Assembly (NCBI GenBank): GCA_964016885.1
Contig: OZ024763.1
Span: 20,708,001 to 20,772,000 of the forward strand
Origin: Eledone cirrhosa
Taxonomy: Eukaryota
Direction of reading: 5' to 3'
Length of the DNA: 64,000 nucleotides
Shown here piece after piece: positions 3,010-64,000 of the stretch; the stretch's first letter is position 1, and each line of letters starts with the position of its first letter. The notes beneath the pieces were generated by a model. The model had not been told where the DNA came from, searched no databases, and saw only the letters and a list, made by a program, of their open reading frames with translations. A program made the translations under genes and the position numbers.

Positions 3010-3013
<4 letters not shown>

Positions 3014-3100
3014 CAACAGTGACATAAACAGATACTTAAGTTTCGTTGGGTTCTGGACCCTAACCTCATTCACCTTGACTATTTCTACCAAACTTTTACA
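3010..3100 (-). mobile_element. Truncated second copy of the 46.1-kb hammerhead-bearing element
   Basis: Minus strand TGAATGAGGTTAGGGTCCAGAACCCAACGAAACTTAAGTATCTGT, joined to an inverted end piece AAAAGTTTGGTAGAAATA that is also seen at 46033. Confidence 0.75.
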
Positions 3101-4879
3101 ACAATATATATATATATATATATAAATAGTGTGTGTGTGTGTATTTATGTATATATTCCTGCGGTGCCGTGTCCTTGAGCAAGACACTTTATTTTACGTT
3201 GCTCTAGTACAATCAGCTGGCAAAATTGCGATCGTAGCAGATATTTCGAAGGGGCCCAGTCTTGTCATAGTCTGTGTCACGCTGAATCTCCCTGAGAACT
3301 TACGTTAAGAGTACGCGTGTCTGTGGAATGTTTGCTCCAGCCGCTTGCCTGTTAATTTCACGAGCGGGCTGTTGTTTCCGTTAATCGTACCAACCGGAAC
3401 ACACGTCTTCGTCGTAACCGACGGAGTACCAGTTTATATGTATATATATATATACGTGTGCGTGTGAGTATATATATATATATATATATATATCGTTCGT
3501 GCTATTGACTTTATATATGTTATTGACCTTATATATGTTGTTATACGGAATGTCAAATATGCCACGCTGATTCAGCTCGTGAATTAGGTTATATGTCCAC
3601 GTGTCTGTGCGAGACTCGGTCAGTTACACTGTAATACGTTGTACCTTCAACTTAAAGGTCCAACCTTGTCACATATTGTGTCACTGTATGTTAGCTTGGG
3701 GACTATTTTATCGGTCCACGTGTCTGTGGGAGGCTCATTCAGTCATGCTGTAATACAAGAGGGTTTGTACCTTCAATTTAAAGAACCAACCTTGTCACAT
3801 ATTGTCACTGTTAGCTTGGGAACTATTTTATGGGTCCACGTGTCTGTGGAGGACTCAGTCATACTGTAATTCAAGATTGATTCATCATCATCATTGTTTA
3901 ACGTCCATTTTCCACTCTAGCATGGGTTACACGGTTTGTCCCATTTGAGCTTAGTTGGGTCAGGTGACTGTGTCTTTCTCATACAGGACTGTTTCTGGGC
4001 AGATTTCTACGATTGGATGCCCTTCCTAATGCTAATGCCAACCACGCTTACTGTGTATGATGGGTGCTTTTTGTCGTGACACCTACACGACCACGTCACA
4101 GTGTGGACTGGGTGATTTTTGTCATGACACCTACATGACCACTTTACAGTGTGTGCTGGGAGCTTTTTGTTGTGACACCTACACGACCATCTTGCAGTGT
4201 GTGCTGTGTGCTTTTTGTTGTGACACCTACATAACCACTTTACAGTGTGGACTGGGGAGTTTTTGTCATAACACCTACACAACCACTTTACAGAGTGGGC
4301 TAGATGTTTTTTGTCGTGACTCCTACACAACCACTTTACAGTGTGCACTGGATGTTTTTGTGATACCAAAAAACCTTTACAGTGTGAGGGTGGTGTATGG
4401 AAAGAGGTATAGTAGATTAAGAGGGGCCTACTGGATGTTTGTTTGAGTCCATGTGCGTGCATTGAAGGTGAGTCTTCTGTATTACTGTATAATGCCAAAG
4501 ATCTTGCATAAGGTCCAGTTTTGTCACATATTGTATCACTGACTGTTACCTCGGGAACTATTTTATAAGTCCTCGGGTCATACTGTAATACAAAATAGAT
4601 TGTACCTGCAATTTAAAGGTCCTGTTTTGTCACATTATGTCACTGTGTGTTAGCTTGGGAACTTTAAAGGTCCATCTAGATTTTTCACATTTTATGTCAC
4701 TGTGTGTTTGCTTGGGAACTGTTTTATGGGTACATATATCTGTGGAGGAACTACTAATGTTTGTGCCCGTTGCCGTCTCATCATATATGCCAACTTCCTG
4801 TTATTTTTTGTTCATTTAAGTGTTTATATTAACTCATTGGACTGTGTAAAATGGTTGAGTAAGTGTGTATATGTGTGAT

Positions 4880-44801: not shown

Positions 44802-45999
44802 TCATCATCATCTTCTTTTAACGTCATCTTCCGAAGATGATGATGATATATATATTCCAGATATATATATATGGAGGCACATGGCTTAGTGGTTAGAGCA
44901 TTGGCCTTGCAATCGAAAGGTTGTGAGTTCAATTCTCAGACCGGGTGATGTGTTGTTTCCTTGAGCAAGACACTTTATTTCACATTGCTCCAGTTTACTC
45001 AGCTGTAGAAATGAGATGATAGGGACTGGGGTCCCTATCATTCCACTGCAAAGTGGTCGTGGAGGTGCCACGGCAAAAAAAAAAAGCACCCAGCCCACAC
45101 TGTAAAGTGGACATGTAGGCGCCATGGAAAAAGAGCACCCAGCACTCACTGTAAATGAGGTTGGTGTTAGGAAGGGTATCCAGCTGTAGAAATCAAGCCA
45201 GAATCAGTTCCCGTCTTACCCTTGCAAGCAGGGAAAAGCGGACGTAAAATGATGATATATATATATATAAAGGAAATGATTTTTTATTTTTTTATTTATT
45301 TTTATTATAAAAAAACGAGATGTCCTACATGGGTGAAAGTATAATGAAAAGAAATCAAAAATGCAACTGGAGTCTTTTTAAGAATATTTATTTCCTTTAC
45401 CAGTTTCAAAAACATAAGAACTGTGAAACAGGTAAAGGAAATAAATAAATATTCTTAAAAAATCTCCAGTTGTATTTTCGATTTCTTTACCTTATATGTA
45501 TATATATGTATGTGTGTATATATATATATATATATATGTAAAGTTATATTTAAAATTGTTGGGTTACAACTAGTAAATATTTATAACTGATATAAAAGCA
45601 CTCGACAAATATTTGGAGTATATTTACAATATTAAATAAATGGAAAACTATATTTATAAAACCATATTTATTTCATTATATATATTTCGGGGATATCATA
45701 TTAACAATATGTTATGCCTTCATCAGACAAAATACAATATAAACAGTTTTATAGATAAATATATTCGACATACCGTAATAAACATCAACTTCATTTGAAG
45801 AGCTTAGAGTAAACTGCTAGAGTAAACCTCTTCAAATGAAGTTGATGTTTATTACGGTATGTCGAATATATTTATCTATAAAACTGTTTATATTGTATTT
45901 TGTCTGATGAAGGCATAACATATTGTTAATATGATATCCCCGAAATATATATAATGAAATAAATATGGTTTTATAAATATAGTTTTCCATTTATTTAAT

Positions 46000-46037
<38 letters not shown>

Positions 46038-48515
46038 TTTGGTAGAAATATCCAAGGGTAAGAGCACTCAGTCCAAGGGATGAGTTTGGTATAAATAGTT
46101 ACAACAGTGACATAAACAGGTACTTAAGTTTCGTTGGGTTCTGGACCCTAACTCATTCAGCCTGTCATAAGAAAAATATTATTTTCAAATGTCACGAGTT
46201 AGGGTCCAGAACCCAATGAAACTTAAGTACCTGTATATATATCACTGTTGTAACTATTGATAAATATATATATATATATTAAACAAGCTTAAAACGAAAA
46301 CGTTTTGCTTTATTCACTCTTTTATTTGCACAAATTCAGCACCTTGTCTGATGTTTTCATGGTTTCCTGTTAGTATTTTAACATTTTTTGGCTTTCTTTC
46401 TAACATTTAGCATGATCTGAACACTAACTTGAACTTATATTAACTGTTAACGACCTGTAATGATTTAGTAGAAAATACCTAAAAACGTATCTTTTAACCT
46501 TTTAGCATTTAAACCGGCCATATCTGGTCAGAACTCTCTCACCTCTGGCTGTAACCTTCAAACTGGCTGTAACTGGTGCTCATACCTATATTAACCTTTT
46601 ATCATTTACATTACTCTATATTTACTATTATATTTTTATGGTAAACATTGTACCTCACATAATATCGAATCTGAGATTTTGATATTATTTATTTTGAGGA
46701 CAATACTTTAATATCGGTATGAATGGCTGGTTACAACCAGTTTGAACAGAAAGAGGTGAGAGAATTCTGGCCGGATACAGCTGGTTTAAATACTAAAGGG
46801 TTAAGGTATTGTTGCCAAAATAAATAACTTCAAAATCTCCTAGATTTGATATTATGTGAGATAATTATGTAAGATAAAGCCTTTACTGTGAAAATATAGC
46901 AACAAATATAGAGTAATGTAAATGCTAATGGGTTAATTCAAATGTTTATAGTATCTTTATTAGTCGACATATCATTTTAGCATGAACTTAACACTAATTT
47001 GAACTTAAACAAATAACCAAACAATTTTTCAATGTTTCTTCTATTAACTCTTAAAACCGTATGGTGATTTTTGTAGAAAATGTCTAAAAACGAGTTTGTT
47101 AATACAAATGTTTATAGTATCTTTACTAGTGGACAGATCATTGTGATATTTTATAGTGTTAACTCTTAACACCCTGCAATGATTTTCGCAGAAAATATCT
47201 AAAAATGGGTTTGCAAATTCAAATGTTTATAGTATAATTACTAGTGGACAGATTGTTGTGAACATTTGTAGTATTATCTCTTAACATCCTCTAATCGTTT
47301 AGCTGAAAATAATTATAAAGCAAGTTTGTTGTTTCCAATGTTTATAGTGGACAGACTTGAATTTTTAATGTGATGCTGTCATAGTGTTGCTATATAACTT
47401 TCAAGGCTGCCTTGCCAATGTGGTTTCATGTGGTACAGGATATTGAATGTTAATGTATTACTGTGATTGTGTGAAACCCTTTAACCAATTCCTCCTTATT
47501 GGTGACCACTTTAACCCTTTTGGTACCAAAACTGCCTGAAACTTGTTCTATGATGCAAAACTGTTTGTTTTAAAATATGTAAATCTATCTTATAGATAGC
47601 GAATTGGCAGTAGTTAGGATGTCAGATAAAATGCTTTATGGTATTCATTCCGGTTCTCTGAGTTCAAATCCCGCCGAGATCAACTTTGCTTTTCATCCTT
47701 TCAAGGTCGATTAAAAAAAAAAAAAAGTACCAGTTTACTACAGGGGTCGAAAATTATACCTGTTACTAGATGCAACTCCTCTTTATGAAGGAAAATTGTT
47801 CTTCAATTATTTTCCTCCTTAATTATATAAATATTTTGTCATTGTATTGTTAATGAAAGACTTTGCTTGTTGTTTCCAAATGATTTTGAAATCAAGAATT
47901 TGGAGGGATTTAATAATATAACTAAATTTCTCAATCTGTAAATTTGGTTGCCATTTGGAAGGGCATCCAATTGTAGAAACTAAGCCAAAATCAGTTCTGT
48001 ATGAGCAAGAATGGTAACCTGACTTGGCATTTCTCACCACAGGACAACTCGTCTAACCCATGCTAGCCTGGAAAAATGGATGTTAAATGGTGATGATGAT
48101 GAAGTAAATGTTTGGAGCGTAATTTAACAAAGATTCTTATATAAAATTGTTGGAAGATTTTGTATGTATAGGGTAAAGACTCCCTTTGGTCACAAATGAC
48201 CATGGGATTTGCACCCAGAAAATTCCCATCCAAGGCACAAGTCTGGGCAAGGTTGTTTGTGGAAGACCAGCAATCACCCATGCATACCAGCCTCCCCTCT
48301 CCACGCCACCGATGTTGTCCAAGGGAAAGGAAATGGCCGATACAGTTTGGCACCAATGACATCACAACTCATTTCTACAGCTGAGTGAACTGGAGCAATG
48401 TGAAATAAAGTTTCTTGCTCAAGGACACAATGCAAAGCCCAGTTTGAGAATCACTCACAACCTCAAGATTGTAGCATGAAGCTCTAACCACTAAGCCATG
48501 TGCTTTCACACTGTT

Positions 48516-49333: not shown

Positions 49334-50944
49334 CTTGACTCTTCTCATCACATTACACTCTACCTCATGTTTAAGTCCTGTAATGTCTGTATACACTCTC
49401 TGTGTGTGTATGTCAGTATGTGTGTATATAATATATAAAATAAAATGATATATAGAGATATATCAATTGAGAACTAAGCAGGCCTTAATACATATATACA
49501 TATAAAAACAAATACTTTAGCATTTACATGACTCTACATATACTATTGTATTTTCACGGTAAAGGCTTTACCTCACATAACATTTACATTACTCTATATA
49601 TACTATTGTATTTTCACGGTAAAGGCTTTATCTCACATAACATTTACATTACTCTATATATACTATTGTATTTTCACGGTAAAGGCTTTACCTCACATAA
49701 CATTTACATTACTCTATATATACTATTGTATTTTCACGGTAAAGGCTTTACCTCACATAACATTTACATTACTCTATATATACTATTGTATTTTCACGGT
49801 AAAGGCTTTATCTCACATAACATTTACATTACTCTATATATACTATTGTATTTTCACGGTAAAGGCTTTACCTCACATAACATTTACATTACTCTATATA
49901 TACTATTGTATTTTCATGGCAAAGGCTTTACCTCACATAACATTTACATTACTCTATATATACTATTGTATTTTCATGGCAAAGGCTTTACCTCACATAA
50001 CATTTACATTACTCTATATATACTATTGTATTTTCATGGCAAAGGCTTTACCTCACATAACATTTACATTACTCTATATATACTATTGTATTTTCATGGC
50101 AAAGGCTTTACCTCACATAACATTTACATTACTCTATATATACTATTGTATTTTCATGGCAAAGGCTTTACCTCACATAACATTTACATTACTCTATATA
50201 TACTATTGTATTTTCATGGCAAAGGCTTTACCTCACATAACATCTCACATAACATTTACATTACTCTATATATACTATTGTATTTTCACGGTAAAGGCTT
50301 TACCTCACATAATATTTACATTACTCTATATATACTATTGTATTTTCACGGTAAAGGCTTTACCTCACATAACATTTACATTACTCTATATATACTATTG
50401 TATTTTCACGGTAAAGGCTTTACCTCACATAATATCTCACATAACATTTACATTACTCTATATATACTATTGTATTTTCATGGTAAAGGCTTTACCTCAT
50501 AACATTTACATTACTCTATATATACTATTGTATTTTCACTGTAAAGGCTTTACCTCACATAATATCTCGCATAACATTTACATTACTCTATATATACTAT
50601 TGTATTTTCACGGTAAAGGTTTTACCTCACATAATATCTCACATAACATCTACATAACTCTATATATACTATTGTTTTTTCACAGTAAAGGATTTACCTC
50701 ACATAATTATCTCACATAATACCAAATCTATGAGATTTTGATATCTATTTTGAGAACAATACCTTAATGTCAGTATGAGTGGCCGGTTATAAGCGGTTTG
50801 CTAAAGGGTTAAATTGTATTTATTTCTATATATATTATATATATATATGAGGTTGGTGTTGGGAAGGGCATCCAGCTGTAGAAATCAAGCCAGAATCAGT
50901 TCCTGTCCCACCTTTGCAAGCAGAGAAAAGCGGACGTAAAATGA

Positions 50945-62293: not shown

Positions 62294-62454
62294 GTTGGTT
62301 TCTTACATTGAATCTTCTCTATGGAACTGGATTTGCTATGATTCTATGTGAATTTCCACCTGGACACTCCTTTGGGTCACTGGACCTTTCATTGCTTTAT
62401 ATATGTATTACAGCTATGTTTGAAGCTAAATTCTATTCTATTATAAGTTGAGCC

Positions 62455-64000
62455 AACTTACAGTGTGGACTGGGAGCCTTTTTACCGTGTCTCCTACACG
62501 GCCGCCTTACAGTGTGGAGTGGGAGCCTTTTTACCGTGTCTCCTACACGATCACCTTACAGTGTGGACTGGGAGCCTTTTTACCGTGTCTCCTCCACGGC
62601 CACCTTACAGTGTGGACTGGGAGCCTTTTTACCATGTCTCCTACACGGCCATCTCACAGTGTGGACTGGGAGCCTTTTTACCATGTCTCCTACACGCCCA
62701 CCTTACAGTGTGGACTGGGTGCCTTTTTTACCATGTCTCCTACACGACCACCTTACAGTGTGGACTGGGAGCCTTTTTACCATGTCTCCTACATGACCAC
62801 CTCACAGTGTGGACTGGGAGCCTTTTTACCGTGTCTCCTACACGACCACCTTACAGTGTGGACTGGGAGCCTTTTTACCGTGTCTCCTACATGATCACCT
62901 TACAGTGTGGACTGGGAGCCTTTTTACCGTGTCTCTTCCACGGCCACCTTACAGTATGGACTGGGAGCCTTTTTACCGTGTCTCCTCCACGGCCACCTTA
63001 CAGTGTGGACTGGGAGCCTTTTTACCGTGGCTCCTACACGGCCACCTTACAGTGTGGACTGGGAGCCTTTTTACCATGTCTCCTACACGGCCATCTCACA
63101 GTGTGGACTGGGAGCCTTTTTACCATGTCTCCTACACGGCCACCTTACAGTGTGGACTGGGTGCCTTTTTTACCATGTCTCCTACACGACCACCTTACAG
63201 TGTGGACTGGGAGCCTTTTTACCGTGTCTCTTCCACGGCCACGTTACAGTATGGACTGGGAGCCTTTTTACCGTGTCTCCTCCACGGCCACCTTACAGTG
63301 TGGACTGGGAGCCTTTTTACCGTGGCTCCTACACGGCCACCTTACAGTGTGGACTGGGAGCCTTTTTACCGTGGCTCCTACACGGCCACCTTACAGTGTG
63401 GACTGGGAGCCTTTTTACCATGTCTCCTCCATGGTCACCTTACAGTGTGGACTGGGAGCCTTTTTACCATGTCTCCTACACGGCCACCTTACAGTGTGGA
63501 CTGGGAGCCTTTTTACCATGTCTCCTACATGACTACTTTACAGTGTGAACTGGGAGCCTTTTTACCATGTCTCCTACACGACCACCTTACAGTGTGGACT
63601 GGGAGCCTTTTTACCGTGTCTCCTACACGACCACCTTACAGTGTGGACTGGGAGCCTTTTTACCATGTCTCCTACACGACCACCTTACAGTGTGGACTGG
63701 GAGCCTTTTTACCGTGTCTCCTACACGACCACCTTACAGTGTGGACTGGGAGCCTTTTTACCGTGTATCCTACACGACCACCTTACAGTGTGGACTGGGA
63801 GCCTTTTTACCGTGTCTCCTACACGACCACCTTACAGTGTGGACTGGGAGCCTTTTTACCGTGTATCCTACACGACCACCTTACAGTGTGGACTGGGAGC
63901 CTTTTTACCGTGTCTCCTACACGACCACCTTACAGTGTGGACTGGGAGCCTTTTTACTGTGTCTCCTACACGACCACCTTACAGTGTGGACTGGGAGCCT
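62455..64000. repeat. 49-bp tandem array (>30 units, runs off the window)
   Basis: Unit CACGACCACCTTACAGTGTGGACTGGGAGCCTTTTTACCGTGTCTCCTA. Degenerate short arrays of the same unit lie at ~4030-4385, 11260-11560, 18900-19560 and 53280-53520. Confidence 0.96.

Follow-up and report, generated by a model that had tools for sequence, protein, structure and literature searches.

The hammerhead motif on the minus strand of the 64,000-nucleotide stretch of DNA analysed here (the window) is, by its sequence hallmarks, what remains of the 3' end of a Hydra-clade Penelope-like retrotransposon (PLE), and its non-canonical core, CUGAAUGA instead of CUGANGA, is inherited as a lineage trait by the greater part of the family but not by all of it. 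The account we favour, and which we regard as fairly probable, is that the window holds an inverted insertion, truncated to the 3' end, of a lineage in whose three oldest age classes CUGAAUGA was kept, and that the hammerhead is likely slow and would cut only as a dimer or together with the element's protein. The shifted-core hammerhead does not amount to a new class of ribozyme, and both of its ingredients, a core with an A inserted after A6 (A6a) and the minimal hammerhead of PLEs, are known. We found no description in print of their joint occurrence, that is, of a shifted core in a PLE; the survey by Lunse et al. 2017 (RNA Biol), reportedly the largest of PLE hammerhead variants, could contain one. 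The lineage touches on the question of whether PLE hammerheads must cut or merely ride along (PMC8557442, PMC11167929).

From 46165 to 46116, the letters of the minus strand form the hammerhead fold exactly as given by the first-pass annotation, a reading of this DNA from its letters, with its three stems, palindromic loop III and GUA triplet (Table 1). Hereby, the three-stem junction, GAA and NUH of a minimal type I hammerhead are all present, and the CUGANGA core is replaced by CUGAAUGA. Of the one nucleotide counted in excess of CUGANGA, the spare position before G8 stands, but 8 nt is itself the normal length for the junction joining stems I and II, the PLE consensus of Cervera and De la Pena 2014 being CUGANGAH (PMC4209133). 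As a monomer, ACUUAAGU closes a 2-bp stem III at +2.9 kcal/mol, and as a dimer it forms an 8-bp duplex at -6.6 kcal/mol. A relaxed 8-nt-core descriptor has a single match in the window, at this site, and matches in none of 60 dinucleotide shuffles. That the extra A stems from decay after insertion, or from a chance match, would be in line with the monomer MFE fold, which is not the hammerhead (-7.9 kcal/mol for the hammerhead versus -11.6 kcal/mol; z -1.47), as is expected with a 2-bp stem III, and with an Rfam scan that returned no hammerhead model at E<=5, its matches being repeat-driven miRNA only. This explanation is refuted by hundreds of dispersed copies which have the extra A in common, and we give it practically no credence.

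Table 1. Features of the insertion and of the second family copy, in window positions.
Feature	Position	Strand	Remark
(TA)n target flank	46004..46033		
Tail of the element; in full-length copies the 5' UTR starts with it	46034..46115 (82 nt)	-	
Minimal type I hammerhead fold (lineage age class A)	46116..46165	-	
Stem I, 5 bp	46161-46165 pairing with 46116-46120	-	
Core CUGAAUGA	46153..46160	-	C3 U4 G5 A6, one extra nt, N7, G8 A9
Stem II and loop II	46133..46152	-	6 bp + bulge + 1 bp (7 bp, one bulged A)
Self-complementary ACUUAAGU	46122..46129	-	palindrome after GAA
Predicted cleavage site after GUA	46120..46121	-	placed by hammerhead numbering
3' UTR remnant	46166..46178	-	copy 5'-truncated here; loose ends at 46178 run on into the family UTR
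Second fragment of this insertion, inverted and without 5' core	46196..46258	+	
(TA)n target flank, opposite side	46265..46278		
Broken second family copy, without stem I 5' strand	3010..3072	-	UGAAUGA at 3066-3072
Inverted tail fragment fused to the second copy	3073..3102	+	

Between the two (TA)n runs, the insertion consists of the core-less inverted fragment, which like these runs had gone unmentioned in the first-pass annotation, followed on the minus strand by the sequence leading from 46178 through the ribozyme into the tail. The stub, which has neither an ORF nor a same-strand partner, is probably inert, and no host function is evident for it. The copy at 3010-3100, previously put forward as a second carrier of the variant core, does retain UGAAUGA but is broken: its stem I is lost, an inverted tail fragment taking the place of the 5' strand, and it has gained a G and a change within stem I. 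Adjoining the TA flank of the insertion lies a 397-bp fold-back with 95% inverted identity (45619-46011).

Walking upstream in longer copies leads to ORF remnants, which end 210-285 nt before the ribozyme. Here, RT motifs, DKT (present in L172 and L021), a CxCX5C linker and a GIY-YIG-type EN without CCHH are found, with terminal CxxC and CxH flanking the conserved E and N of the EN. The unit is about 2.6 kb long, L172, in which remnants of both RT and EN survive, spanning about 2.56 kb from the tail to the hammerhead, and follows a short (<3 kb) single-ORF layout of RT and then C-terminal GIY-YIG EN. The ORF motifs, the linker, (TA)n and the unit length support the Penelope-like parent put forward in the first-pass annotation and show the linkage to RT and GIY-YIG for which it had proposed to look, and the short unit, CxCX5C, DKT, absence of CCHH and (TA)n match the features listed for the Hydra clade (PMC8557442, section 11). 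The assignment to this clade rests on these motifs and on the 37-50% identity of the ORF of a sister family to mostly unnamed relatives; neither Pfam scans nor PDB searches with the ORF pieces gave a match. The Hydra RWK motif reads RWR here as well as in the sister family. Stops or shifts break all the lineage copies examined. Assignment to the Neptune clade was dropped, its CX2-5CxxC linker and CCHH being absent, and a non-LTR retrozyme was rejected because short head-to-tail hammerhead tandems are lacking and the copies are single or arranged as inverted pairs; the only same-strand repeats encountered were one segmental triplication and separate insertions.

The sister Hydra family (L136, L139-L144, L164-L166) is younger and more intact, with open frames of up to 628 aa. 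Its ribozyme combines a canonical core with a U.U-closed 2-bp stem II, the palindromic ACAAUUGU and a homologous tail, and in one copy (L165) it flanks the ORF at either end. Where copies of the element are nearly full length, the tail forms the beginning of the 5' UTR and leads into the ORF. The loci fetched include 52 head-to-head inverted pairs and no full-length lineage copy with a hammerhead at both ends. A tail hairpin at 46067-46090 (minus strand), common to the lineage and the sister family (L165, L172) with a changed loop, is a candidate RT-binding or promoter element.

Collecting copies genome-wide, as had been proposed, gave 2481 first-look candidates. With family flanks, the 8-nt core CUGAAUGA has 320 exact matches in the genome and 0 in the control, with AU in 97 of the 100 matches listed; this pattern required G10.1 and is biased against the canonical-register class (320 versus 1). 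In a core-blind sample of 30 loci picked by their 3' half, the 8-nt form is present in 27 of 27 core-bearing loci, 3 being without the 5' part, and among copies picked by protein similarity it is found in 14 of the 15 that bear a core. No indel at >=2% was seen across the core in 2376 and 2272 contigs from one sample, possibly the assembly's own. A core-open pattern has 374 matches, the first 100 of which, counted by eye, comprise 48 AUGAG, 20 AGAAA, 12 AUGAA, 4 ACGAA and 16 others; ACGAA, ACAAA and AGGAA occur as intermediate forms. The canonical-register core CUGAAGA+AA has 105 exact matches and makes up about 20 of the 100 listed copies; three canonical-core copies on C8 were set aside as one decayed copy triplicated with its flanks. 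As the first-pass annotation had foreseen, searches restricted to CUGANGA overlook whole lineages of hundreds of copies that carry the shifted core.

Two trees order the copies, one built from the upstream sequence only, with the ribozyme left out (54 copies with at least 290 nt), and one from the ORF ends, in which five copies of the sister family serve as the root (32 of the 53 copies retained). Both yield one ladder of C, B, A, early D and late D. Eight late-D copies form one tip clade in the upstream tree (100/99); in the ORF-end tree three late-D copies fall together with early D into a terminal clade (99/97), late D not being one resolved clade. Mean divergence from the class consensus, in which ascertainment favours clean copies, amounts to 0.106 for C, 0.079 for B, 0.056 for A and 0.04 for late D. 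Class D is distinguished by loop III UUGA, A at 10.1 and the cores CUGAAUGAA, CUGAACGAA and CUGAAGAAA, of which CUGAAGAAA, found in the youngest class, is a canonical CUGANGA. Since canonical cores are found in the sister family and in the published Hydra families, the ladder places the origin of the shifted core before class C, after which it persisted through classes A and early D until it was replaced. The earlier view of the extra A as a family trait rather than decay thus holds for the consensus of classes C, B and A, and the A is conserved into early D, but late D, the youngest subfamily, has returned to CUGANGA in the canonical register. Here, the G10.1-C11.1 pair and the perfect palindrome are lost, and the change of G10.1 to A together with the broken palindrome looks like relaxed constraint.

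Successive masters are set apart by changes at few positions of the core and stems and make up an ordered set of 50-nt RNAs. Tentatively, and with some reserve, the lineage may be read as a fossil time series, in which a long run on a throttled A6a hammerhead that kept the RT template uncut would have been followed by re-evolution of the canonical core through a one-base register shift (CUGAAUGAG to CUGAAUGAA to CUGAACGAA to CUGAAGAAA), with stems II and III being weakened instead and cleavage kept low by other means. In one inverted insertion (L247/L268, G000:C1:289556928-289557047) and in L228, the cores of the two arms differ, CUGAACGAA or CUGAAACAA versus CUGAAGAAA, hinting at two templates or at RT errors in one event.

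To compare the classes, consensuses were built from 18 copies of A, 15 of B and 8 of C. Over the 50 nt of the ribozyme they disagree at 3 positions, each of which lies in loop II, 5 nt long (chance 5e-4); identity among them is 70-78% in the UTR (aligned pairs) and 58-80% at ORF third positions. Conservation of the 90-nt tail equals that of the ribozyme (5/90 versus 0/45 non-loop changes, Fisher p=0.17), and hence it need not reflect catalysis. Covariation in the stems, for which the first-pass annotation had proposed a test, does not rise above shuffles among 30 distinct copies, the stems of the lineage being invariant; the same architecture with different stems is seen in the sister family and in the published Hydra rows.

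The equally conserved tail bears on a further possibility, which we hold to be conceivable and not likely, namely that the shifted core killed catalysis, that the fold was kept only as part of the whole 3' end (as promoter, 5' UTR or RT-binding element) and that the later canonical-looking core is drift. That every change among C, B and A falls in loop II would not be expected from a dead ribozyme, nor does the natural A6a example that has been tested, which keeps low activity (PMC3088659), point in this direction. Read in the canonical register, however, the core has U8 and G9, and changes of G8 abolish cleavage (PMC11167929); moreover, the shifted core and an A.C mismatch at 10.1-11.1 occur together in the intermediate classes. 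Cleavage is also dispensable for insertion by another PLE, where, according to Frangieh et al. 2024, catalytic mutants did not impair in vitro insertion (PMC11167929). Two changes at those sites would restore CUGANGA by chance in about 1 of 15 cases by an arithmetic estimate, which again argues against drift.

Regarding the core itself, the proposal of a core-variant hammerhead family stands in so far as this is an inherited family of minimal type I hammerheads, but the variant core is published: Perreault et al. 2011 report a natural A6a insertion with low activity in one hammerhead, for which loss of the U4-phosphate contact is predicted (PMC3088659, Fig. 5). The marine-metagenome A6a hammerhead of their Fig. 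S6 also has UGAAUG in its core, by a machine reading that depends on the layout. Their A6a is a rare single example with full stems, whereas the lineage comprises hundreds of copies with a minimal stem III. The long fixation of the shifted core, with all other catalytic nucleotides intact, could alternatively mean that the extra nucleotide fits a different core geometry and that the ribozyme is fully active and represents a distinct hammerhead subtype. In view of the low activity and predicted broken U4-phosphate contact of A6a (PMC3088659), the later abandonment of the shifted core by the lineage, and a genome search for other 8-nt-core families with 27 matches versus 12 in the control, none of them convincing (12 of the 27 with flanks, 8 viewed), we deem this improbable. 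A metagenome pattern scan gave 4 matches without stem I, which were dismissed as chance. We hence return to the slow hammerhead of the favoured account, for which residual ribozyme activity appears rather more probable than its complete loss.

All 26 rows of File S2 of Craig et al. 2021, which represent 25 Hydra families including Hydra-1_oBim, have CUGANGA (PMC8557442), versus CUGAAUGA in the older classes described here. In other respects the published Hydra-clade hammerheads are alike, being of type I, located within the 3' UTR some 100 nt short of the 3' end and equipped with a short self-complementary stem III, (TA)n targets and the ORF motifs (PMC8557442); the stems of the Hydra-1_oBim ribozyme are unrelated to those of the lineage. 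Metazoan PLE minimal hammerheads likewise share the palindromic stem III, the dimer model, the 8-nt junction and opposite-strand pairs 100-700 bp apart, and their in vitro activity is low (PMC4209133). Their spare nucleotide, however, follows A9, whereas in the lineage it precedes G8; the youngest class of the lineage matches the metazoan CUGAAGAA form.

In the favoured account, the hammerhead of a head-to-tail transcript would sit about 225 nt ahead of the next ORF. Pairing between two copies would run through ACUUAAGU, with cleavage after GUA releasing the unit RNA, and reverse transcription would begin downstream of the cut, on a template that is uncut or re-ligated there. Past the cut site, the 3' ends of 128 distinct copies lie mostly at 20-29 nt (59 copies) or 95-99 nt (23 copies), which suggests an RT template uncut or re-ligated at the site; with copies propagated from such RNA, a slowed core would be tolerated or even useful. 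A comparable case is the Poseidon PAc hammerhead from Anolis, which cuts only with protein, and for which the uncut RNA is the RT substrate, insertion proceeding from uncut RNA (Frangieh et al. 2024, PMC11167929). Two RT start sites past the cut site give optional tails there as well. PAc differs in belonging to another PLE clade and in having a canonical C3-G8 core with protein-aided cleavage, whereas the lineage is known from sequence. Against the favoured account stand the missing full-length lineage copy with a hammerhead at both ends among the loci fetched, the lack of covariation, the equally conserved tail, the erosion in class D and the unimpaired in vitro insertion by catalytic mutants of another PLE (PMC11167929).

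The 5' strand of stem I lies in a pyrimidine-rich stretch ending in CAG/G (46161-46178, minus strand), which resembles a 3' splice site and is present in classes C, B, A and D and absent from the sister family. Splicing at CAG/G would exchange the stem I strand; in D. virilis Penelope an intron ends at helix I (PMC4209133).

The genome contains several other canonical hammerhead repeat families (L092-L111; 120 pattern matches versus 23 in the control), two of these loci (L105/L106) lying near a Hydra-like ORF start. A 1129-residue open frame at L112:5994-9380 presumably resembles an endonuclease-RT LINE. Within the window, an abundant MITE-like repeat of ~215 bp with internal inverted segments occupies 46490-46940 and about 20 other sites, and tandem arrays are found at 49515-50720 (about 60 bp) and 62452-64000 (about 49 bp), the 60-bp array unit being derived from the ~215-bp repeat.
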